From: a virus
Taxonomy: Duplodnaviria > Heunggongvirae > Uroviricota > Caudoviricetes
Virus record (IMG/VR): IMGVR_UViG_2703718812_000010
Reading direction: 5' to 3' (one strand)
Length of the DNA stretch: 43,350 bases
The position numbers and the translations under genes are program-made. This document shows positions 146 to 11,340 of the stretch, one piece after another. Within the stretch, counting starts at the first letter, position 1. Each line of letters opens with the position of its first letter. The notes under the pieces are model-generated. The model did not search any database. It worked only from the letters and a program-made list of their open reading frames with translations, and had not been told where the DNA came from.

Positions 146-880
146 TTGTTGGAGGACGTTTTAATGGAAACTGTATTTGACGCACTGAAAGCACTGAAAA
201 AAGCCTCTTCACAGGTAGTGGCATCGCGCCTTGGAATCAGCCGCGAAGATGCTGTCAACGAACTGTGGAAACTGAAGCGCCGTGGTGAAGCGGATAACAA
301 GGGTTCGATGTGGTGGCTGATTCAGGCTGGTGAAAGTGAACCAGTGTCACCGGTACCGAAAGTGACAGCGCAAATGCTGACTGAGGCGATTGAACATCAT
401 GGCCCACAAACGGCGGATGAGCTGGCACTGATGTTCGGGATTACCTCCCGCCGGGCGAATTCATCACTGGCCATGGCAATCAGCAAAGGGCGTCTGATTC
501 GCGTGAATCAGGGCGGTAAATTTCGGTACTGCATACCGGGCGCTGATTTACCGGCAGAGCCGAAAGCCGCATCCATAGCGGAAACGGATGGTAAAGCCTT
601 TCCTCAGCCAGCAGGTGTTGCGTTACCAGTCGGGGAAGCGGAAACACAGGAAGAAATAAAAACGGAAAGTGTGGCGGTCACAGTGCAGTCACAGCCGTCG
701 TTCACCAGAAAGCATCCGGATGGTCTGATTTTACCATCGCTGCATGTGGCTAACCGCGAGCTGCGCCGGGCAAAAGGTCAGGTTCAGAAGTGGGAGCGAG
801 TCTGCGCCGCGCTGCGGGAGCTGAACAAGTGCCGGGATATTCTCCGGGATATTACCGCCACCAGAGAACAGCAGCGGTGA
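146..880 (+). CDS. hypothetical prophage protein, 244 aa
   Basis: Long ORF in ORF track; no motif recognised; start may be an internal Met. Context: cluster of small prophage-type genes. Confidence 0.45.
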
Positions 881-912
881 GTGGGTGGAAGACGTGGTGC
901 CGGGCGGAAATC

Positions 913-1194
913 ATGATACTCCGGCAGTGTGCGGGAACGAGGAAGGTAAAAAGCGTTGGCGCACTTATCGGACGAACTGAAGCGGCAGTGAGAACGAAGG
1001 CACGGGAGCTGGGCATCAGCATGATGTTACGTGGTGATTTTCACCCGTCGGCAAAATATTCTCAGCGTGATATTGAGCTGGCGCGGCAACTGCATCAGAG
1101 AGGCATGCAAAGAAGGGAAATTGCCAGAAAATTAGGCATGCCGCTGCGCATAGTGAATAACTACGTTTATTTCGACAGGAGGGTGTCTGCGTGA
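913..1194 (+). CDS. hypothetical HTH-repeat protein (start moved to internal ATG of ORF 790..1194)
   Basis: ORF 790..1194 overlaps the previous gene; internal ATG at 913 gives a 93 aa product with repeated motifs of the form (I/V)A/G..LG.S and RREIARKLGM resembling helix-turn-helix units. Confidence 0.35.
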   Translation: MILRQCAGTRKVKSVGALIGRTEAAVRTKARELGISMMLRGDFHPSAKYSQRDIELARQLHQRGMQRREIARKLGMPLRIVNNYVYFDRRVSA

Positions 1195-1418
1195 AAATCC
1201 TGTATCAGGATTACGGCCCGGTGGGGCAGGTGGTTATCAGCAGTACTGTAATGGAGTTTCGGAAGCATAACCGTGTGGTGGATGCTGTGCTGTTAACCTG
1301 TCCGGGGATATCGGCGAGTCGTGCAGGTGTGTTTATTATGAAGACTAAATTATATGGCAGTAAGGCGTGGATAAAGAAGGCGTATCGTGTAGCGTTGCAG
1401 GAGGTTAACAGTGAGTAA
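1191..1418 (+). CDS. hypothetical protein, 75 aa
   Basis: ORF overlapping stop of the upstream gene by 4 nt (translational coupling pattern). Confidence 0.35.
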   Translation: MKILYQDYGPVGQVVISSTVMEFRKHNRVVDAVLLTCPGISASRAGVFIMKTKLYGSKAWIKKAYRVALQEVNSE

Positions 1419-1722
1419 AATTAAAGAAATGCCGGTAGTTCGTGACGGATATGGCTACTGGACACATCCTGAATATGAAAAATTCTGTGATGGTCGGGAA
1501 TATATTTCAACGGAAGAGTTTAACGCCTGGATGGAGGAAAATAATCTTCAATACGTCCTCTGCTTCAGAGATGAAGGATGTGCTGACCTTGATGCGTGTG
1601 ATGCTGATATTTCTGCATGGGAACCGGAACGACCAGAGGGCGATGGCTGGTTTATTGGTTCCATTCATGATACGGAAGATGGCCCGGTTTGTGTCTGGTT
1701 GCGAAATAAGGCTGAAGCATAA
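1411..1722 (+). CDS. hypothetical prophage protein, 103 aa
   Basis: ORF in operon-like arrangement with flanking small genes; acidic, Cys-containing; no confident family assignment. Confidence 0.4.
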   Translation: MSKIKEMPVVRDGYGYWTHPEYEKFCDGREYISTEEFNAWMEENNLQYVLCFRDEGCADLDACDADISAWEPERPEGDGWFIGSIHDTEDGPVCVWLRNKAEA

Positions 1723-1849
1723 AGGCGATAAACCAACTAACAACTAAATACTGAAGATTTAAATCAGAAACGATTTTTATTAAATCCTTAACCGGAGGGA
1801 TTCCTGCACCCTCAGAACATCAGGAGGCCGCCCGAAAGGGCGGTAAGAA

Positions 1850-2068
1850 ATGAAACATTATTTAGAAAAAAATTACCCACGAAAGAGCAGAACAACAGAG
1901 TTTCTGTTTTTCATTCTGTTTATAGTGTTGATGATACCGATATCCCCGCTATTACTGGTCTGGATAATTGGAAGGACATTTGAACCAGTTATTGAGCTAT
2001 ATACCGATGTGACATGGGAATCATTCAGCGCACTGCACAATAAAATTAATCCGTATAAGGAAAACTGA
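1850..2068 (+). CDS. small membrane protein, 72 aa
   Basis: Hydrophobic stretch FLFFILFIVLMIPISPLLLVWIIG predicted as a TM helix; preceded by AGGAGG and a GNRA-loop hairpin. Confidence 0.4.
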   Translation: MKHYLEKNYPRKSRTTEFLFFILFIVLMIPISPLLLVWIIGRTFEPVIELYTDVTWESFSALHNKINPYKEN

Positions 2069-2069
2069 T

Positions 2070-2627
2070 ATGAGCACTATTACCAGAGAACGCGCGGAGA
2101 TTAAATCATACATCACAGGCTTCCTGAGCGACTCGGCGCACGATAACAAGTCTTCAGACAGCCTGCTGGCTAATGTGTTTCGTATCGCGCTGGCATCACT
2201 GGAAGCAGAGCCGATAGCAATGGTAGTGCCTGATGAAATGGATTTGCTTACCTGCCATCTCGACGGTGTAACTAAAACATATGCTGATGGCTGGAACGCC
2301 TGCCGCGTCGCCATGCTTCAGGCCGGAAACTTTCGGGAAAATAAGAATTCGTCAACCAACAATTTTCGGGAAATCTCGGAAACGTCAACCAGATCTCCGA
2401 TAACTCTGGATGGCTGGATAAGCTGTACTGAGCGAATGCCTGAAAAGAGCCAGAACGTGCTTATTTCGATGAATATCGATAGCGAGGCTGGGCCATTAAT
2501 ATATTCCGCACGCTATCTCGGAGGCACGTTCCGGCGCGGAGGTATAGCAGTTAGTCCGGGTAATGATCTTAGGCAAGCAACCCACTGGATGTCGCTACCA
2601 GAACCGCCGCAGGAGGTGAATCAATGA
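2070..2627 (+). CDS. hypothetical prophage protein, 185 aa (C-terminal WISCTERMPE region reminiscent of DUF551-type prophage proteins)
   Basis: ORF starts 1 nt after the previous stop; family resemblance is from memory only and was not searched. Confidence 0.45.
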   Translation: MSTITRERAEIKSYITGFLSDSAHDNKSSDSLLANVFRIALASLEAEPIAMVVPDEMDLLTCHLDGVTKTYADGWNACRVAMLQAGNFRENKNSSTNNFREISETSTRSPITLDGWISCTERMPEKSQNVLISMNIDSEAGPLIYSARYLGGTFRRGGIAVSPGNDLRQATHWMSLPEPPQEVNQ

Positions 2628-2917
2628 CCTGGCCTGAAGCATTCACAACGGTAGGAATTGCGATGGCGGTGGCGCTGGTGGTGTATTCGATTTGCCGCTG
2701 GGGATAAAAACGGTTTGCGGGAAAAGGATAGTTAAGTAGAATTGCAGCGGGTGCTTGAGGCTATCTGCCTCGGGCATGAACACCAACGGCAGATAGAGAA
2801 AAGCCCCAGTTAACATTACGCGTCCTGCAAGACGCTTAACATTAATCTGAGGCTCAATCCATGCTGAACACATGTAGGTTAGCCTCTTACGTGCCGAAAG
2901 GCAAGGAGAAGCAGGCT

Positions 2918-3073
2918 ATGAAGCAGCAAAAGGCGATGTTAATCGCCCTGATCGTCATCTGTTTAACCGTCATAGTGACGGCACTGGTAACGAGGAAAGA
3001 CCTCTGCGAGGTGCGAATCCGAACCGGTCAGACGGAGGTCGCTGTCTTCGTAGACTACGAATCTGAGAAGTAA
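2918..3073 (+). CDS. hokD: Hok/Gef family type I toxin (HokD/RelF-like), 51 aa
   Basis: Translation MKQQKAMLIALIVICLTVIVTALVTRKDLCEVRIRTGQTEVAVFVDYESEK has the Hok architecture: one TM helix followed by the conserved RK.LCE.R....EVA.F..YE periplasmic tail. AGGAGA sits 8 nt upstream of the ATG at 2918. The ORF-track start at 2861 is an in-frame upstream extension. Confidence 0.75.
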   Translation: MKQQKAMLIALIVICLTVIVTALVTRKDLCEVRIRTGQTEVAVFVDYESEK

Positions 3074-3080
3074 GAGACCA

Positions 3081-3103
3081 GGCGGGGGAGTAATCTCCCG
3101 CCA
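3081..3103 (+). other. 3' stem-loop of the hok transcript (GGCGGGGGA / TCTCCCGCC)
   Basis: Imperfect 8-9 bp inverted repeat immediately after the hok stop; no T-tract follows, so more likely an mRNA-stabilising end structure than an intrinsic terminator. Confidence 0.35.
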
Positions 3104-3192
3104 CCTCTGATGTGTCAGGCATCCTCAACGCACCCGCGCTTTACCATACTGAAAATGCTGTTTGAATGTTCATCTCTGAAAGAGGACTATGA

Positions 3193-3537
3193 ATGAAAAA
3201 GGTATTGATTGCAGCACTTATTTCCGGTGTGTCTTTTGGCGCTTTTGCACAGCAGGGTGGTTTCCAGGGGCCAGAAGCAGAGCGTTCAACAGTAGCGCAG
3301 GCAAAAGAACTGAAGGATGATGCATGGGTTATCCTTGAAGGGAGCATCGTTAAAAAAGTGGGTGATGAACGTTATGAGTTTCGTGACAATAGCGGGACAA
3401 TTGTCACGGATATTGATGACAGCGTATGGGCCGGGCAGAATGTTTCTCCGAAAGACAAAGTAAGAATTGAGGGTGAAATTGATAAAGACCTGAGCAGTGT
3501 TGAAGTTGATGTAAAGGCACTGAAATTATTAAAGTAA
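3193..3537 (+). CDS. YgiW/YdeI-family periplasmic OB-fold (BOF) protein, 114 aa
   Basis: N-terminal signal peptide MKKVLIAALISGVSFGAFA; remaining sequence resembles the BOF stress-protein family. Confidence 0.65.
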   Translation: MKKVLIAALISGVSFGAFAQQGGFQGPEAERSTVAQAKELKDDAWVILEGSIVKKVGDERYEFRDNSGTIVTDIDDSVWAGQNVSPKDKVRIEGEIDKDLSSVEVDVKALKLLK

Positions 3538-4140: not shown

Positions 4141-4752
4141 TTAACCAACAACATTTTTCTTTACTGTCACTGCCCCTGATTCCTGGGTGGCGTTATTGCT
4201 CGAGTTGTACTTCTCAATAACGCGCAAAATCTCTTTGTCTGTTTCTTCACTTCCCGCCATTCCTATCTTTATTGCATTTTTTAGTACGGGACGTAATGGC
4301 AAGGCATCAATGATGCTTTCTACCGCATCCTGGCTGATTGTAGATGTATTCATTGCTGCCAGCCTGACAAGGTTGTTAGTACCTTCTCGCCTGATGAATG
4401 TAAGGATTAATTGCTTCTCTTGGGGGCTTAGAGAGCTAAGCGCCTGATCAATACCCGAACCTGAATCGCAATTGTTTTCGATTTTTCCGCATTCATCTTC
4501 GTTCTTGCCTGTGGCCAACCATTCGAGTGAACAATTACAGGCTTTAGCTATTAAGGCCAGTTTATCCAAAGGAGGGAAGTTTTTCCCCTTCCTGTAATTT
4601 CTTACTGTGGCTTCAGATAGTCCACAAAGGGTCGCCAGTTCGACGTTTGTCATGTTTCCCATAGCCATAGCTAAGCGTTCTGAAAATCGGTTTATTCCTT
4701 CCATATCAATAAACCGTTCCGCACTGGATACGGTTTTTTCTGCCTTATCCAT
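4141..4752 (-). CDS. prophage repressor, XRE-family HTH (c-gene position)
   Basis: Leftward gene divergent from ner-A-B; HTH_XRE-like segment MTNVELATLCGLSEATVRNYRKGKNFPPLDKLALIAKACNCSLEWL; 3' end about 270 bp from the left terminus, as for Mu c. Confidence 0.7.
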   Translation of the reverse strand: MDKAEKTVSSAERFIDMEGINRFSERLAMAMGNMTNVELATLCGLSEATVRNYRKGKNFPPLDKLALIAKACNCSLEWLATGKNEDECGKIENNCDSGSGIDQALSSLSPQEKQLILTFIRREGTNNLVRLAAMNTSTISQDAVESIIDALPLRPVLKNAIKIGMAGSEETDKEILRVIEKYNSSNNATQESGAVTVKKNVVG

Positions 4753-4908: not shown

Positions 4909-5175
4909 ATGAGGGTATCCAGACAAGCATCGAATAATTTGTTTGTTCGAGAGGGGTGTGACTGGTCTGCTAAAGCGGTATATGCAGCCCTTGAAAACAA
5001 AGGCACAGACCTCCCTGAACTGGAAAGGGAGTTAGGATTAAAAAGCGGATCAATGCGCAATGTGTTTTACCGCCAGTGCCGTAAATACGAAGCCGCCATC
5101 GCCGAAAAAATAGGGGTTGAACCTGCTGTAATCTGGCCCAGCAGATACCAGGTGGACGCCAGAGAAGTGGCTTGA
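4909..5175 (+). CDS. ner: Ner-like DNA-binding early regulator
   Basis: 88 aa ORF directly upstream of the transposase, matching Mu ner in position, size and Ner/Nlp-like sequence. Confidence 0.7.
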   Translation: MRVSRQASNNLFVREGCDWSAKAVYAALENKGTDLPELERELGLKSGSMRNVFYRQCRKYEAAIAEKIGVEPAVIWPSRYQVDAREVA

Positions 5176-5185
5176 TGGGGGATGT

Positions 5186-7276
5186 ATGTGGGTAACAGCA
5201 AAAGAATGTGTTGGTCTTCCTGATTTACCAATGATGGAACATAACATTCGCCATCGACTCACAAAAGCAGCTGCGGGAAATGCAGCCATGTTACGCAAAC
5301 GTAAGGGGACAAAAGCAATCGAATTTAATATCGATTGTTTGCCTTCTGGCGCGCAACAAGTATTGCGTGAACGTTATGCCCTTCAACTGATGACGCAAAA
5401 AGCTGATGAATCACCGGCTCCGGTGGTGACAAAGGCCAGACGCTCGCCTGCCGTGGTTGATGCGGTGGAGGCATATCGCGGATCACCACAACTGATGGTT
5501 GAACGCCTTAATGCCCTGACTGAAAACCAGCGCCAGGTGGCTGATGCACGAATCGCGATCGTCAGCGAAGTGATGAAAGTCGCGCAACAACCCGGTTTCA
5601 GCTGTGCGAAAGCTATCCGGTTTATCGTTGACAACCTGGCACGTTCGCAACTGGACGAGCGCATTGTGGCAATGGTTGAGACGGCGAACGCCAAAAAGGG
5701 AAACAGCCGTGCGTTGAGTGAAATAACGCTGAAACGCTGGATTGCGGCCTTTAACAAGGCGCAGAACGCCGCTGAACGCCTGCTTTTACTGGCACCGGGT
5801 AAGCGCCAGGAAATAAAAGCCGAAGATATTAACTGGCTGCCCGAATTTCTGGCGCAGTATCGCCAGTCAAACGGCCGACCAATGACCGAGGCTTACGAGG
5901 ATTTTGTCGCTGAATGGCAGCACCGGCACGCTGATGAGCCTTATATGCTCGATATCATGCCGTCTTATGACACCATTCGCCGCGCAATGAAGAAACTGCC
6001 GGAAGTGGTGAAACAAAAAGGCCGGGTGACCGGCAGTGAATACCGCCAGCTTGAGGGATTCACGCGCCGCGACTGGTCCAGAATGCCGGTGAATTATGTC
6101 TGGATTGGTGACGGTCACGGCATGAAGCTGAAATGCGCACACCCGGTTCACGGTCGGCCATTTGCACCGGAAGTGACCTTTGTTATCGACGGTGGCACGC
6201 GCTTTGTGGTGGGCTGGAGCCTTGACCTGGCTGAAAATGTTTTCGCCGTAGCCGGTGCCATACAGCACGGCATTCGCCATCACGGCAAACCGTTTCTGTA
6301 TTACTCGGATAACGGCTCCGGGGAAACCGCCGACATCCTGGATAAGGAGGTTGTGGGGATACTGCCGCGACTGGGGATTAATCACCCGACCGGGATTGCC
6401 GGTAATCCGCAGGGACGAGGCATTATCGAACGGCTTAACCGCACATTACCGATGCGCATAGCCCGTAAATACCGCACCTATTTCGGGAAAGGTGCAGATC
6501 GCGAGACGTTACGCAAAACCAACCGCGATTTACGCTCGGCATTTACTGCCCTGCAACAGGGCAAACGGCTGAACGCCCGGCAGCAGTCAGCGATGCGTGA
6601 TTTACCGTCCTGGTCTGAACTGATTGATGCCATTCGTGACGGTGTTGAGTGGTACAACAACCGGCCGCACGATGAATTACCGGTGAAGCCGAACGGCAAG
6701 CATTACAGCCCGGCGGAGTTCAGAAAAAAACGCCTGGCGGAAGAGGACACGGAAATTGAATGGCTGTCCGATGTTGAGCTGCGGGATATGTTCCGGCCGA
6801 TGGTGGAACGCCCTGTAAGACGCTGTGAAATACGCTGGCTGAATAATATTTACTACGCGCCCGAGCTGCGTGACGAGCATGGTCGTAAGGTGCTTATCAG
6901 CTATGACATTCATGATGCCGAACGAATTACCGTACGTCGCCTGGATGGCAGCGTGATTTGCGAGGCGGTATGGGACGGTAATAAACGCGAAGCCTTCCCG
7001 GTTAGCGCGGAATACTACAAACAGCAGCAACGCCTTAAAGGCATGCGTAAACGCGCAGAGGAAAAAATCCGTGATGCCGAGGATGAGGTTGTCAACGTGC
7101 TGGAGCACAAGCCGCAGGAGCCCTGGCTGGAAAACATATACCGCCCTGTGGGTAATACGGTGACCGTTCAGCAACCGGTCGCTGACGATGAACCTGATGA
7201 AGAATACGAGCGTAATTTCCAGCGGGGATTGCAGTTGCTGGAAGCGAAATTAAAAGAAAATGACCCGCTGGCCTGA
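5186..7276 (+). CDS. Mu-type DDE transposase (MuA-like), 696 aa
   Basis: N-terminal end-binding-like domain; candidate catalytic triad in WIGDGH / YSDNGS / GIIERLN blocks; size and position match MuA. Confidence 0.9.
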   Translation: MWVTAKECVGLPDLPMMEHNIRHRLTKAAAGNAAMLRKRKGTKAIEFNIDCLPSGAQQVLRERYALQLMTQKADESPAPVVTKARRSPAVVDAVEAYRGSPQLMVERLNALTENQRQVADARIAIVSEVMKVAQQPGFSCAKAIRFIVDNLARSQLDERIVAMVETANAKKGNSRALSEITLKRWIAAFNKAQNAAERLLLLAPGKRQEIKAEDINWLPEFLAQYRQSNGRPMTEAYEDFVAEWQHRHADEPYMLDIMPSYDTIRRAMKKLPEVVKQKGRVTGSEYRQLEGFTRRDWSRMPVNYVWIGDGHGMKLKCAHPVHGRPFAPEVTFVIDGGTRFVVGWSLDLAENVFAVAGAIQHGIRHHGKPFLYYSDNGSGETADILDKEVVGILPRLGINHPTGIAGNPQGRGIIERLNRTLPMRIARKYRTYFGKGADRETLRKTNRDLRSAFTALQQGKRLNARQQSAMRDLPSWSELIDAIRDGVEWYNNRPHDELPVKPNGKHYSPAEFRKKRLAEEDTEIEWLSDVELRDMFRPMVERPVRRCEIRWLNNIYYAPELRDEHGRKVLISYDIHDAERITVRRLDGSVICEAVWDGNKREAFPVSAEYYKQQQRLKGMRKRAEEKIRDAEDEVVNVLEHKPQEPWLENIYRPVGNTVTVQQPVADDEPDEEYERNFQRGLQLLEAKLKENDPLA

Positions 7277-7347: not shown

Positions 7348-8280
7348 ATGACTGATATTAACGATGTAATCAAGACCATTGATGAACTTATTGATGGCGG
7401 CGTACTGACGCAGTATGCCATCGCCAGAGAGGCGGGAATTTCCGACGGCACATTATCGGCTTTCCGTAAGGGAAAATATAAAGGCGATAACGCTGCTGTG
7501 GCTGCTTCCCTGCGTTCCTGGTATGAGAACTGGAATAAACAAAGCGCACTGCCGGAACCGCCGCAGTTTGTGGAAACGCAGACAGTCCAGGAGCTGCGCG
7601 CACTGTTTCAGGCGGTTCGTCTGATGGGCTGTATTAACGTTATTGTGGGCGTACCGGGTGTGGGTAAAACGGCCACTGCCCGTAATTACTGCCAGGAGCA
7701 ACCAAACACCTGGATGATCACCCTGTCACCCGCGCACTCCAGCGTCACGGAGTGTCTGCTGGAGCTGGCCGATGCGCTGGGGATTGATTACACCCGCGCG
7801 AACAAAGGGGCATTATCCCGCGCCATCCGCCGTCGCCTGATGGGAACGCGTGGACTGGTTATTGTGGATGAGGCGGATCATCTTGGTATTGACGGTCTGG
7901 AGCAACTCCGGGCAATTCAGGACGCCACGGGGATCGGGATGGTGCTTATTGGTAACCCGCGCGGATTGTTTAAAGGTGGACGCCGCACCTTTGATGATTT
8001 ATCGCGCCTGTTCAGCCGTCTTGCCCGTACAAAACAACTTCGCAAGGCCAAAAAGGCGGATGTGCTGGCCATTGCCAGGGCGTGGGGGATCAGTGGTGAG
8101 GCCGAGCTGGCCGTCATGCAGGCTATCGCTGAAAAGCCGGGAGCGTTACGCGTTCTGACACATACGCTTAACCAGGCGTGGCTCACCGCCAGCGGTGAAG
8201 GCGCGGCGCTGACAGAAAAACATATTAATGCGGCCTTTAAAGAGGTTTATACCAACCCTGAATTACTCTCACAGGTGTGA
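7348..8280 (+). CDS. MuB-like AAA+ ATPase, transposition target-DNA activator
   Basis: Walker A GVPGVGKT and Walker B LVIVDEADHL; 310 aa; immediately downstream of the transposase. Confidence 0.9.
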   Translation: MTDINDVIKTIDELIDGGVLTQYAIAREAGISDGTLSAFRKGKYKGDNAAVAASLRSWYENWNKQSALPEPPQFVETQTVQELRALFQAVRLMGCINVIVGVPGVGKTATARNYCQEQPNTWMITLSPAHSSVTECLLELADALGIDYTRANKGALSRAIRRRLMGTRGLVIVDEADHLGIDGLEQLRAIQDATGIGMVLIGNPRGLFKGGRRTFDDLSRLFSRLARTKQLRKAKKADVLAIARAWGISGEAELAVMQAIAEKPGALRVLTHTLNQAWLTASGEGAALTEKHINAAFKEVYTNPELLSQV

Positions 8281-8504
8281 TTATGGCGGTATTTAATATT
8301 CCTGATATTTACGGACGCTTTTACCTGGTTAATTTCGATAACGTGAAGGTGATTTCACTGGCCGAAAATAAAGAATGTGGCGATTTACTTTTTGAATTTA
8401 ATGACCGCACACGAATGGTGATATCTGCCGGACTTGATCGAGAAGGTGCGACAGACGTTTACAGCGGAATATGCCGTTCTGTTGGTGCGAAACAAGTCAG
8501 CTAA
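8277..8504 (+). CDS. hypothetical early protein, 75 aa
   Basis: Start overlaps the B stop; first gene of the accessory early operon. Confidence 0.45.
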   Translation: MIMAVFNIPDIYGRFYLVNFDNVKVISLAENKECGDLLFEFNDRTRMVISAGLDREGATDVYSGICRSVGAKQVS

Positions 8505-8771
8505 ATGAGGTGTTATATGAATATGCAATCCTGCGGTAACAAAATGAATTTATTCGACTCCCTGAACAGCGCGCGCCGTCTGACCGAACTTGCCGGTGCG
8601 GTACTGGAACGCAGTAAGCGCTATCCGCAACGTTTTGCACTGAAAACCACGCCGCCGGTAGGCAACGTGCAGGGAACCGGTGAAATTGAAATCACCATAC
8701 AGACCAACGGCCTGCGCCGCCGTGTGAAGGCCACCCGCATCAGCGGCTGCACGGTTTACTGGGAGGTGTGA
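8505..8771 (+). CDS. hypothetical early protein, 88 aa or shorter
   Basis: Tightly packed ORF; several possible in-frame starts. Confidence 0.4.
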   Translation: MRCYMNMQSCGNKMNLFDSLNSARRLTELAGAVLERSKRYPQRFALKTTPPVGNVQGTGEIEITIQTNGLRRRVKATRISGCTVYWEV

Positions 8772-8772
8772 G

Positions 8773-9054
8773 GTGAAAAAAAATCTCATTGCATGGGCGT
8801 GGTCGAGTGGTCTTATTGAGTTTGGTTACGTCCTGCCGGAAGGTGCATTGCCGATAGTTGCCGGAAAGCCTGCCACGGTACGGCATGTGATTGAGGTTAT
8901 GGCGCGTCATGGACGTGATGAACAGGAGCAGTTACTGGTTCCGGGGATACCGGAAGCGGTGACGGAGGAAGAAGCCTTTAATGCCATGATTCGGTTCTGC
9001 CGTGAGGTCAGACGCCGGGTCAGTTATCCAAACAGAACGAGGACCAGAGGATGA
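8773..9054 (+). CDS. hypothetical early protein, 93 aa
   Basis: ORF 2 nt after the previous stop. Confidence 0.45.
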   Translation: MKKNLIAWAWSSGLIEFGYVLPEGALPIVAGKPATVRHVIEVMARHGRDEQEQLLVPGIPEAVTEEEAFNAMIRFCREVRRRVSYPNRTRTRG

Positions 9055-9323
9055 GTAAAGTCGTACGCATTATTTTCGAATACAAGGAGCACGTTATCCA
9101 TAAAAACGCTGATGGAACAGTGCGCATGGGGGTAAGTCTGGACATACGTTCAACCGGGATAAAGCAGAAGGGTGATGGACCCGCCATGATTTTTGGGGTG
9201 GTTATGCTCGCGGAAAGCAGAGACTTTGCTGAACTTGTGGCAATGAAAGCCAGTGCGCTCATGAAAGATATGAGCATGCGTTCCGGGGTTATTAAAGGTA
9301 ATGAATTTAATCAGCAGGGGTAA
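9051..9323 (+). CDS. hypothetical early protein, 90 aa (paralog A)
   Basis: Begins MSKVVRIIFEYKEH; the next gene begins MSKVRVIFEFKH, indicating a tandem duplication. Confidence 0.5.
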   Translation: MSKVVRIIFEYKEHVIHKNADGTVRMGVSLDIRSTGIKQKGDGPAMIFGVVMLAESRDFAELVAMKASALMKDMSMRSGVIKGNEFNQQG

Positions 9324-9327
9324 TTCC

Positions 9328-9621
9328 ATGAGCAAAGTACGCGTTATTTTTGAATTTAAGCATGTTTCGCATGACGAAAAACCGGCAGGCAATGACTGTG
9401 TTGAAGTGCATGAAAAGATTGGTGTGGATGTAAAAACAGAACGTGATACGAATAACAGGCCGACGTCACTCTGTGACGTTTATGCAAGTATTCTCCAGTA
9501 TCACAGTCCTGAAATTATTCAGTTTCTCTCAGCGGAATTTCAGGCATCTGTACAGGCTTTTGGGGCGGATGCCATCATTAAACGCCACCGCGTGCATAAA
9601 GCATCAGGCACACTGCAATAA
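9328..9621 (+). CDS. hypothetical early protein, 97 aa (paralog B)
   Basis: Internal ATG of ORF 9301..9621 with a GGGG-rich ribosome-binding region upstream; N-terminus parallels the previous gene. Confidence 0.5.
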   Translation: MSKVRVIFEFKHVSHDEKPAGNDCVEVHEKIGVDVKTERDTNNRPTSLCDVYASILQYHSPEIIQFLSAEFQASVQAFGADAIIKRHRVHKASGTLQ

Positions 9622-9632
9622 GGAAAAACAAA

Positions 9633-10163
9633 ATGGCAAAACGCGTTACAAAATTAAAGGCCGCAGCAGAGGCGGCACCGCAGACCCGTGAAGAGGTCAG
9701 TCGCGATATCCGCACCCTGGGCGATATTCAGCGAGAGGCGCTGCGGCTGGAAACGGCGATGAATGATGAAGTGGCAGAAATCACCGCCCGTTATACGCCG
9801 CAGATTGAAAACCTTAAAAAAGAAATCAAAGTGCTTTTTAAGGGGATTCAGGACTGGTGCAAAACCAACCGAGATGAGCTGACGAACGGCGGCAAAACCA
9901 AAACTGCCAATCTGACCACCGGAACGGTGTCATGGCGACTGGGGAATCCATCATGCAGCGTCAGTCGTGATGTGGAAGGTGTGATTGAAATGCTGCGCCG
10001 TATGGGCCTTGAGCGTTTTATCCGCACGAAAGAGGAAGTGAACAAGGAAGCGGTCCTGGCGGAGCCGGATGCGGTGAAAGGGATTGCCGGTATTAAGGTG
10101 AATAAAGGCGCTGAAAGTTTTTATGTCGAGCCTTTTGAACAGGACGCTGGACTGAATAAATAA
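9633..10163 (+). CDS. gam: Gam-like host-nuclease inhibitor (Mu Gam family)
   Basis: 176 aa ORF at the Mu gam position; N-terminal basic/coiled region then C-terminal domain; matches Mu Gam (174 aa) in size and sequence character. Confidence 0.8.
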   Translation: MAKRVTKLKAAAEAAPQTREEVSRDIRTLGDIQREALRLETAMNDEVAEITARYTPQIENLKKEIKVLFKGIQDWCKTNRDELTNGGKTKTANLTTGTVSWRLGNPSCSVSRDVEGVIEMLRRMGLERFIRTKEEVNKEAVLAEPDAVKGIAGIKVNKGAESFYVEPFEQDAGLNK

Positions 10164-10260
10164 CACCGCATTAATCAATTAAATATCACTTCGTTTTAAT
10201 TATGGCGCTCGCGTCAGGGGACTGCCTGCGCCTGTAAACTGAAAATAAGGAACAGGATAT

Positions 10261-10806: not shown

Positions 10807-11340
10807 ATGATTGATGCAAAAGTGCTTGAAGGGGTTAAAAACTGGCTGAGTATTTACGGGCGTCTGACCTGCGGCATTCTGGCTGAAAAAATGAATATGC
10901 CGCCATCCTCGATGGTTTATTTTCTGCGTGATGCGGTCGATGCCGGGGTGCTGACGGAATGTAACGGTTTTTATGATATTCCGCGTCCCCGCCCGGTGCA
11001 GCCGGTTCGTCGCAAATGCAGCCAGGAAGGTGCGGCTGATGATGTTCAGTGGTGCAGCTTCAGAAAATCCCTGCCGTGGATTGAGGGGCATGATATTCCG
11101 TCAATGGCGTGGGAATTTGCTCAGGGCGTTCTGACCTGTGAAACCGTTTATGTGGTGGCTGAAGTTGATGAGCAGGCCATGAAAGAAGGCGTGCCCCAGT
11201 TTGTGATGGCGTATATCGACATACGCCTGGGTGTCATTATCTGCGGTTTAAGCGGCTGGAATATCACCTCGCGCGTTCTGCGTTACCTGATTGTTGACCG
11301 GACGGCCGCGCCTGCTGGGATATCTGCGGAGGTGGCGTAA
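10807..11340 (+). CDS. hypothetical early protein, 177 aa
   Basis: ORF only; 4 nt after the previous stop. Confidence 0.45.
   Translation: MIDAKVLEGVKNWLSIYGRLTCGILAEKMNMPPSSMVYFLRDAVDAGVLTECNGFYDIPRPRPVQPVRRKCSQEGAADDVQWCSFRKSLPWIEGHDIPSMAWEFAQGVLTCETVYVVAEVDEQAMKEGVPQFVMAYIDIRLGVIICGLSGWNITSRVLRYLIVDRTAAPAGISAEVA

Follow-up and report, generated by a model that had tools for sequence, protein, structure and literature searches.

Two adjacent early-region genes of a Mu-like Escherichia coli prophage as probable divergent members of one small protein family

Two small adjacent genes in the early operon of a Mu-like prophage, here called orfA and orfB, resemble each other at their N-termini. 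We judge it probable, at roughly 70%, that they are anciently diverged members of one family of Mu-like early-region proteins of ~90–100 residues. Genes for this family belong to the early ('semi-essential') region of transposable, Mu-like prophages in Enterobacteriaceae.

Results and Discussion

Prophage setting of the gene pair

The window, meaning the whole 43,350-nt stretch that was analysed (IMG/VR record IMGVR_UViG_2703718812_000010), carries a Mu-like transposable prophage near-identical to Sp18 of E. coli O157:H7 Sakai. Positions 8500–10200 share 99.4% identity with Sakai and at most 99.6% with other O157 strains. The features that concern us are as follows.

4141–4752, − strand: CI-type repressor
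4909–5175: ner-like gene, early operon
5186–7276: transposase A, early operon
7348–8280: MuB, early operon
8277–8504: 75-aa gene following MuB, early operon
ending at 8771: Kil, early operon
8773–9054, + strand: 93-aa gene, phrog_1518
9051–9323, + strand: orfA, 90 aa, starting MSKVVRIIFEYKEH; phrog_4107 (E=1e-61, full length)
9051–9101, + strand: orfA 5' segment, encoding MSKVVRIIFEYKEHVIH, the family N-terminal strand motif
9328–9621, + strand: orfB, 97 aa, starting MSKVRVIFEFKH; phrog_2230 (E=1e-40, full length)
9328–9372, + strand: orfB 5' segment, encoding MSKVRVIFEFKHVSH; left breakpoint of the orfB-body exchange and of the STEC299 chimera
9191–9198 (in orfA) and 9558–9565 (in orfB), + strand: 8-nt direct repeat ttttgggg, the junction of the P0036 fusion
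9633–10163, + strand: gam, Mu Gam family (PF07352, E=1.5e-41), 57% identical to Mu Gam
10807–11340: Gp11-like gene, early operon

A first-pass annotation had described two adjacent genes of about 90–97 aa with similar N-termini, and both ORFs are indeed present on the + strand, at 90 and 97 aa. Their Sakai counterparts, ECs_4950 (orfA) and ECs_4951 (orfB), are both annotated as hypothetical. An alternative ORF of 106 aa begins at the ATG at 9301, upstream of the orfB start, but family members share the MSK start, which marks 9328 as the real start of orfB. The start codon of orfA is ATG in the window and GTG in Sakai (L001 position 3552), in otherwise identical surroundings.

The genes are tightly packed. 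The stop codon of the 93-aa gene overlaps the orfA start (ATGA), 4 nt separate orfA from orfB, and the gam start follows the orfB stop by 11 nt; gam is the conserved downstream anchor of the family locus. Shine-Dalgarno-like purine runs (GAGGA and AGGGG) can be read at −12 to −8 of the two genes. Promoter- or terminator-like sites on the + strand were not found between the genes, with counts no higher than in shuffled sequence. The ATGA overlap implies translational coupling of the 93-aa gene and orfA. On this layout and on Mu biology, the most likely arrangement is that the early promoter drives orfA and orfB along with A, B, kil and gam, and that translation of the pair is coupled.

RefSeq and PHROGs (phrog_1518) call the 93-aa gene a 'host nuclease inhibitor'. 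Neither Pfam nor NCBIfam backs the name, the product does not resemble Gam, and the label looks like annotation carry-over.

Direct comparison of the two proteins

The two N-termini fit a common pattern, MSKV(V)R(I/V)IFE(Y/F)K(E)H. In BLASTP only residues 1–17 of orfA and 1–15 of orfB align, with 12/17 identities, two 1-residue gaps and E=9e-4 for the single comparison. The Smith-Waterman score of orfA against orfB was 45, whereas shuffles averaged 23.9 (z=5.1; 1 of 2000 shuffles scored as high). The match begins with the first residue of each protein. In the DNA, the opening ~45 nt of the two genes show ~80% identity and differ by several synonymous changes and two codon indels; beyond this the genes do not align. 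When the N-termini were left out (orfA 18–90, orfB 16–97) no pairwise similarity was left (z=0.0). Alignment of the two ORFs, the check proposed in the first-pass annotation, thus gave a divided answer: pairwise comparison sees similarity over no more than ~15 residues, yet the match there is significant, and deeper methods extend it. The annotation's picture of divergence in the C-terminal halves understates the matter, with everything past residue ~15 diverged beyond pairwise detection.

So short a similarity, picked post hoc from a 43-kb window and with a BLASTP E-value of just 9e-4, might be put down to chance resemblance of two unrelated small ORFs. Against this, the match begins precisely at Met1 of each protein, and their predicted topology is the same. 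The profile, intermediate-sequence and HMM-shuffle results given next effectively refute chance, which we regard as scarcely credible.

Homology through profiles and bridging sequences

PHROGs places the two proteins in separate families, phrog_4107 and phrog_2230, both of 'unknown function'. A word-indexed search returned only close homologues of each, in E. coli; those of orfA came from E. coli only and were at least 73% identical. None of Pfam, NCBIfam and PADLOC assigned a family to orfA, orfB, Mu gp7 or further members of the family, and searching PDB sequences with the profiles of the two families gave no match under E=0.7. Among 50,697 phage records, tblastn of orfA and orfB hit only two, both of them Stx-phage records containing an inserted Mu-like element; neither Mu nor D108 was matched.

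Searched exhaustively with HMMER, 1.84 billion representatives gave only 11 hits to the orfB family, so the family is narrow and confined to Enterobacteriaceae. Five of these hits were distant full-length relatives starting MSNKVQVIFTFE, and a follow-up search seeded with these five brought in 162 proteins. These were mainly highly diverse 97-aa proteins of Salmonella enterica, together with Serratia and Klebsiella proteins and a second E. coli allele class (~58% identity). A profile search of genome contigs with a narrower alignment found Citrobacter braakii alone. The motif M-S-(N)-K-V-[QR]-V-I-F-x-F-E describes the family, and both orfA and orfB fit it from residue 1.

The orfA family was compared with the orfB side by hhalign, and the match lengthened as the orfB-side profile deepened. 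It covered 42 columns (E=7e-6) with the orfB family itself, 63 columns (E=1.2e-5) with a broader profile, and 76 columns (orfA 1–76, family 1–80; E=2e-6, probability 89%) with the deep profile. These hhalign probabilities, 81–89%, are under 95%, and the orfA profile is shallow (Neff 1.4).

Bridging sequences led to the same place. The body of orfA (residues 18–90) aligned to three Klebsiella-type proteins, P0164, P0163 and P0162, at z=10.4, 7.6 and 6.1, with none of 2000 shuffles scoring as high. These three are bona fide family members, with E=4e-8 to 9e-7 in a database of 5.8 billion sequences. An HMM built from the family without any E. coli sequence scored orfB at 59.9 bits and orfA at 17.1 bits, with no orfA shuffle of 2000 as high (shuffle maximum 9.6). 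In the other direction, an orfA-only HMM matched Klebsiella-type proteins (E=1e-5 to 3e-4) and matched no unrelated ORF among all those of at least 50 aa in 18 loci. The reciprocal HMM hits between the orfA and orfB families came with no false positives among all ORFs of the 18 loci.

Both proteins match the family profile significantly over most of their length. Direct similarity of the bodies is nil (z=0), so their homology rests on transitive and profile evidence. Taken with the shared predicted fold described below, these sequence and model results make orfA and orfB, as far as such methods can place them, paralogues over most of their length within one superfamily; the paralogy proposed in the first-pass annotation is borne out. 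The result merges phrog_4107 and phrog_2230, two families of 'unknown function', into one superfamily.

Predicted fold and conservation pattern

AlphaFold2 modelled orfB at pLDDT 85.5 and pTM 0.71, with strands at 4–21 and 24–39 and helices at 48–58 and 60–77, and modelled orfA at pLDDT 84.8 and pTM 0.67, with strands at 6–18 and 24–35 and a helix at 44–73. Both models are confident. The two proteins are thus predicted to share one order of elements, a long beta-hairpin of two strands, a loop and a long (~30-residue) helix against which the hairpin packs. The orfA alignment contained sequences of the orfB superfamily, so the agreement of the two models is supportive rather than independent. 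A search of BFVD with both models gave nothing with E below 0.01 among the best 50 matches.

Conservation is very uneven along the family. Among 21 non-redundant members, mean column entropy was lowest in the first 12 residues, at 0.67 bits, as compared with 2.0 bits in the rest of the hairpin, 2.2 in the loop, 1.5 in the helix and 2.1 in the tail. That these first ~12 residues, the start of strand 1, are the most conserved element of the family explains why only the N-terminus is visible by eye. By this measure the N-terminal strand is the family signature, with the remainder evolving fast.

Copy number and position in related prophages

Single-copy loci were found in Salmonella (L005, L006 and L013), Serratia (L009), a Klebsiella-type metagenome contig (L010), Klebsiella oxytoca (L011) and Citrobacter braakii (L017). 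All of the non-E. coli relatives that we examined have a single gene directly upstream of gam or of a DUF3164 gene; only E. coli Sp18-like loci, among those examined, have two copies. Of 5426 complete E. coli genomes, 228 contain orfA and 232 contain orfB. A contiguous single-copy form was seen in only one of 231 matching genomes, strain STEC299. The two-copy state is therefore specific to the E. coli Sp18 lineage and nearly fixed in it. The survey of copy number suggested in the first-pass annotation accordingly confirms two adjacent copies, confined to this lineage, while the single-copy E. coli form turns out to be a chimera-like rarity.

Position tells the two copies apart. orfB, 11 nt before gam, shares with all the relatives examined its direct adjacency to gam or DUF3164, and is the positional orthologue of the single-copy family member elsewhere. 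orfA, in the same operon, lies one gene further upstream and is not itself adjacent to gam. The 93-aa gene has orthologues of 48% identity in the metagenome contig and in K. oxytoca, and C. braakii has a matching 90-aa gene in the same position. In these three loci the orthologue directly precedes the single copy, which identifies orfA as the extra gene of the Sp18 lineage. The superfamily thereby marks a conserved gam-proximal slot in Mu-like prophages of Enterobacteriaceae.

Two further features of these loci were noted. The gam slot of L005, L006, L011 and L017 (Salmonella, K. oxytoca and Citrobacter) is occupied by a 212-aa DUF3164 protein, suggesting functional replacement of Gam. In E. 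coli 23CRST049 (L002), the IS66-family element ISEc22 (tnpA-tnpB-transposase) lies inside the 3' end of the orfA homologue, with orfB and gam intact.

Origin of the pair and selection

The bodies of the two proteins have different nearest relatives. Leaving out the N-terminus, orfA is nearest to Klebsiella-type alleles (z 6–9), scores at most 4.9 against Salmonella types, and is least like E. coli orfB (mean z 0.5). The body of orfB is closest to Salmonella types (mean z ~11). orfA and orfB are therefore not each other's closest relatives, as recent tandem duplicates should be. Three motifs lost from E. coli orfB persist in orfA: S-x-G-[IL] following strand 2, GP, and FG where the helix starts. 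The N-terminus of orfA is, like that of orfB, of E. coli type, with SK lacking the N, R for Q, E for T, and then H.

The first-pass annotation read the pair as a local tandem duplication. In its strongest form this would be a recent in situ duplication of orfB in the E. coli lineage, followed by fast, positively selected divergence of the upstream copy beyond its N-terminus. Such an event would account for the adjacency of the genes and the restriction of the two-copy state to one lineage, and for N-termini that are more alike between orfA and orfB (12/15) than either is to those of Salmonella and Klebsiella (3–6/14); the single-copy E. coli prophage (L014) could then represent the ancestral state. 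But a recent copy of orfB should have a body nearest to that of orfB, and the orfA body is nearer to Klebsiella-type alleles, which makes recent duplication unlikely. Nor would such a duplicate be expected to keep the motifs lost from E. coli orfB, and the discordance within orfA between an E. coli-type N-terminus and a Klebsiella-like body argues against it too. The single-copy form, besides being rare, resembles at its 5' end an orfA allele fused to the body of orfB. Finally, present-day orfA shows the dN/dS of purifying selection. We consider recent duplication unlikely, if the least unlikely of the rival accounts of the resemblance.

We favor instead the view that the two are old members of one family. 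On that view the pair would derive from an old duplication or, more likely, from recombinational capture of a second, Klebsiella-type-like allele beside the resident one. In that case orfA would owe its E. coli-type N-terminus to exchange or conversion inside the conserved 5' segment.

Nei-Gojobori dN/dS between alleles was 0.23–0.34 for orfA, with one close pair at 0.69, and 0.26–0.48 for orfB. With dN/dS below 1 in all allele pairs, both are real genes under moderate purifying selection; gene-wide positive selection was not seen, and the first-pass suggestion of diversifying selection does not hold at the level of the whole gene.

Recombination, chimeras and cassette exchange

Comparison of the window with another prophage locus (L007) gave an abrupt change of identity. 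Identity is 97–100% over orfA and into orfB as far as its nucleotide 30 (100% over 9327–9356), falls to 40–77% over 9357–9626 (L007 3030–3294), and returns to 93–100% at gam. The E. coli orfB body falls into two allele classes with ~71% nucleotide and 57–59% amino acid identity, one of them found in 26 of 232 genomes; in those 26 genomes an orfB allele at ~71% nucleotide identity lies beside an orfA at ~94%. This pattern indicates cassette exchange of the orfB body between prophages, to the right of the conserved 5' segment.

Chimeric genes were also found. The single gene of STEC299 (CP022279.1; L014 1501–1797, protein P0047) has the upstream flank and first five to six codons of orfA, followed by an orfB-type body. 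This could be a recombinational collapse within the common 5' segment or an ancestral state, and its rarity favors collapse. A database protein of 67 aa (P0036) is an in-frame fusion of orfA 1–49 to the last 18 residues of orfB, with its junction exactly at the ttttgggg repeat. Cassette exchange and chimera together demonstrate, at the level of aligned sequences, that the DNA encoding the conserved N-terminus is a recombination breakpoint.

In temperate phages, conserved 'linker' sequences at gene boundaries mediate the exchange of modules, in what is known as modular evolution. The short conserved 5' segment of orfB is like such linkers in marking the abrupt change from ~100% to 40–77% identity and the crossover of the chimera. 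It is unlike them in lying inside the coding sequence and in encoding the most constrained peptide motif of the family. Protein function therefore explains its conservation, and recombination may be a by-product.

One might turn this around and take the common 5' sequence to be mainly a nucleic-acid feature, a translation-initiation region or recombination linker, shared by proteins that are otherwise unrelated. The core GTT ATT TTT is indeed near-identical at synonymous positions across deep lineages, and the segment coincides with recombination breakpoints. Yet protein-level homology reaches far past the 5' segment. Within the segment, AGT/AGC, TTC/TTT and CAC/CAT differences and codon indels occur with the peptide kept, and AT-rich codons are common near start codons in any case. 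A linker role is moreover compatible with membership of one family, and is included in that explanation. We therefore hold a purely nucleic-acid origin of the resemblance to be very improbable.

An orfA allele in L015 has a 16-nt block in common with orfB, and 8 of 11 codons for identical residues are themselves identical between the orfA and orfB 5' ends. Gene conversion at the 5' end was considered for these observations, but the sites are too few to distinguish it from constraint combined with a preference for AT-rich codons near the start.

The family exemplifies a route of accessory-gene diversification in which a constrained N-terminal strand is kept, bodies are exchanged as cassettes, and two alleles are occasionally stacked.

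Possible function and a lead to Mu gp7

The early accessory genes of the Mu semi-essential region (kil, gam, gemA and others) have in common with orfA and orfB their operon, small size, early expression and class of dispensability. Homologues of Kil and Gam flank the orfA/orfB pair; no sequence relationship was found between orfA or orfB and Kil, Gam or any characterised early protein. In this setting the finding is a tidy annotation, mostly ordinary, rather than a surprise.

The two proteins seem too small and featureless to be enzymes. We suppose that they have no enzymatic activity and act by binding some macromolecule of the host or the phage. A scaffold, possibly with a dimer interface, would be formed by the conserved strand and the helix. 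The family is very variable in hairpin, loop and tail, and the variable hairpin tip, loop and C-terminal tail may set specificity, in which case two copies would give two specificities.

The one lead to function came from Mu gp7 (E6, Mup07, NP_050611.1; phrog_10252), which is Gnarl2 of Silas et al. (Nat Commun 2025, PMC12373910). Expression of Gnarl2 shifted O-antigen bands down and raised T5 infection 1e5–1e6-fold in ECOR1 and ECOR22 (PMC12373910). Like orfA and orfB, gp7 is small (87 aa) and is encoded between kil and gam, within the early semi-essential region; unlike orfB it is not adjacent to gam, with gp8 and gp9 between them in Mu. It begins MAKVIIEIK, and its 'TLAGMVALLVL...G' helix region always falls in register with the family helix. 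The second-best PHROG for Mup07 is phrog_2230 (E=0.009, residues 1–78). Its body aligns to Klebsiella-type members at z 3–5, and a Klebsiella-type HMM scores it at 7.3 bits (4 of 2000 shuffles).

Other comparisons gave no such signal. An 11-sequence gp7 family alignment compared profile to profile with the orfA/orfB family was not significant (E=0.08–0.6), nor were broad family HMMs against gp7 (0.7–2.1 bits) or pairwise alignments of orfA and orfB with Mup07, and no Mu protein, gp7 included, was among the best 50 BFVD matches to the orfA and orfB models. On balance we think membership of Mu gp7 in the superfamily a serious possibility with the odds somewhat against it, and orfA and orfB are not filed here as Gnarl2 members. 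The O-antigen and T5 phenotype was established by experiment for Gnarl2.

A bolder proposal would make orfA and orfB Gnarl2-type effectors, small proteins acting on their own that bind host enzymes of envelope biosynthesis and remodel the O-antigen or LPS of the STEC host. The segment coding for the N-terminal strand would then be a built-in recombination linker used to shuffle and stack 'specificity bodies', and the Sp18 lineage would have acquired two effectors with different targets. We offer this as speculation that is more probably wrong than right by a wide measure. Were the link between gp7/Gnarl2 and the family true, two candidate O-antigen-modifying effectors would be present in ~4% of complete E. 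coli genomes, O157:H7 Sakai among them, with relevance to phage susceptibility and serotype biology.

Other observations

An exact 13-nt repeat, TTTTTGAATTTAA, occurs at 8389–8401, where it encodes LFEFN in the 75-aa gene, and at 9347–9359, where it encodes IFEFK in the orfB N-terminus. No wider similarity of the 75-aa gene product to orfB was seen, and the repeat is probably due to chance in AT-rich sequence. A search for repeats found no long ones.

The prophage repressor (4141–4752, − strand) has a lambda CI-type HTH (PF07022, PF01381) and is not of the Mu c type. The left flank (146–3537) holds lambdoid-type genes (DUF1627, DUF551) and a BOF-family gene. The records LC727881 and LC727895, both of Stx phages, carry the annotation 'inserted Mu-like phage'. 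From its lambdoid-type left flank, the Mu-like element of the window seems likewise to lie beside or inside another prophage.
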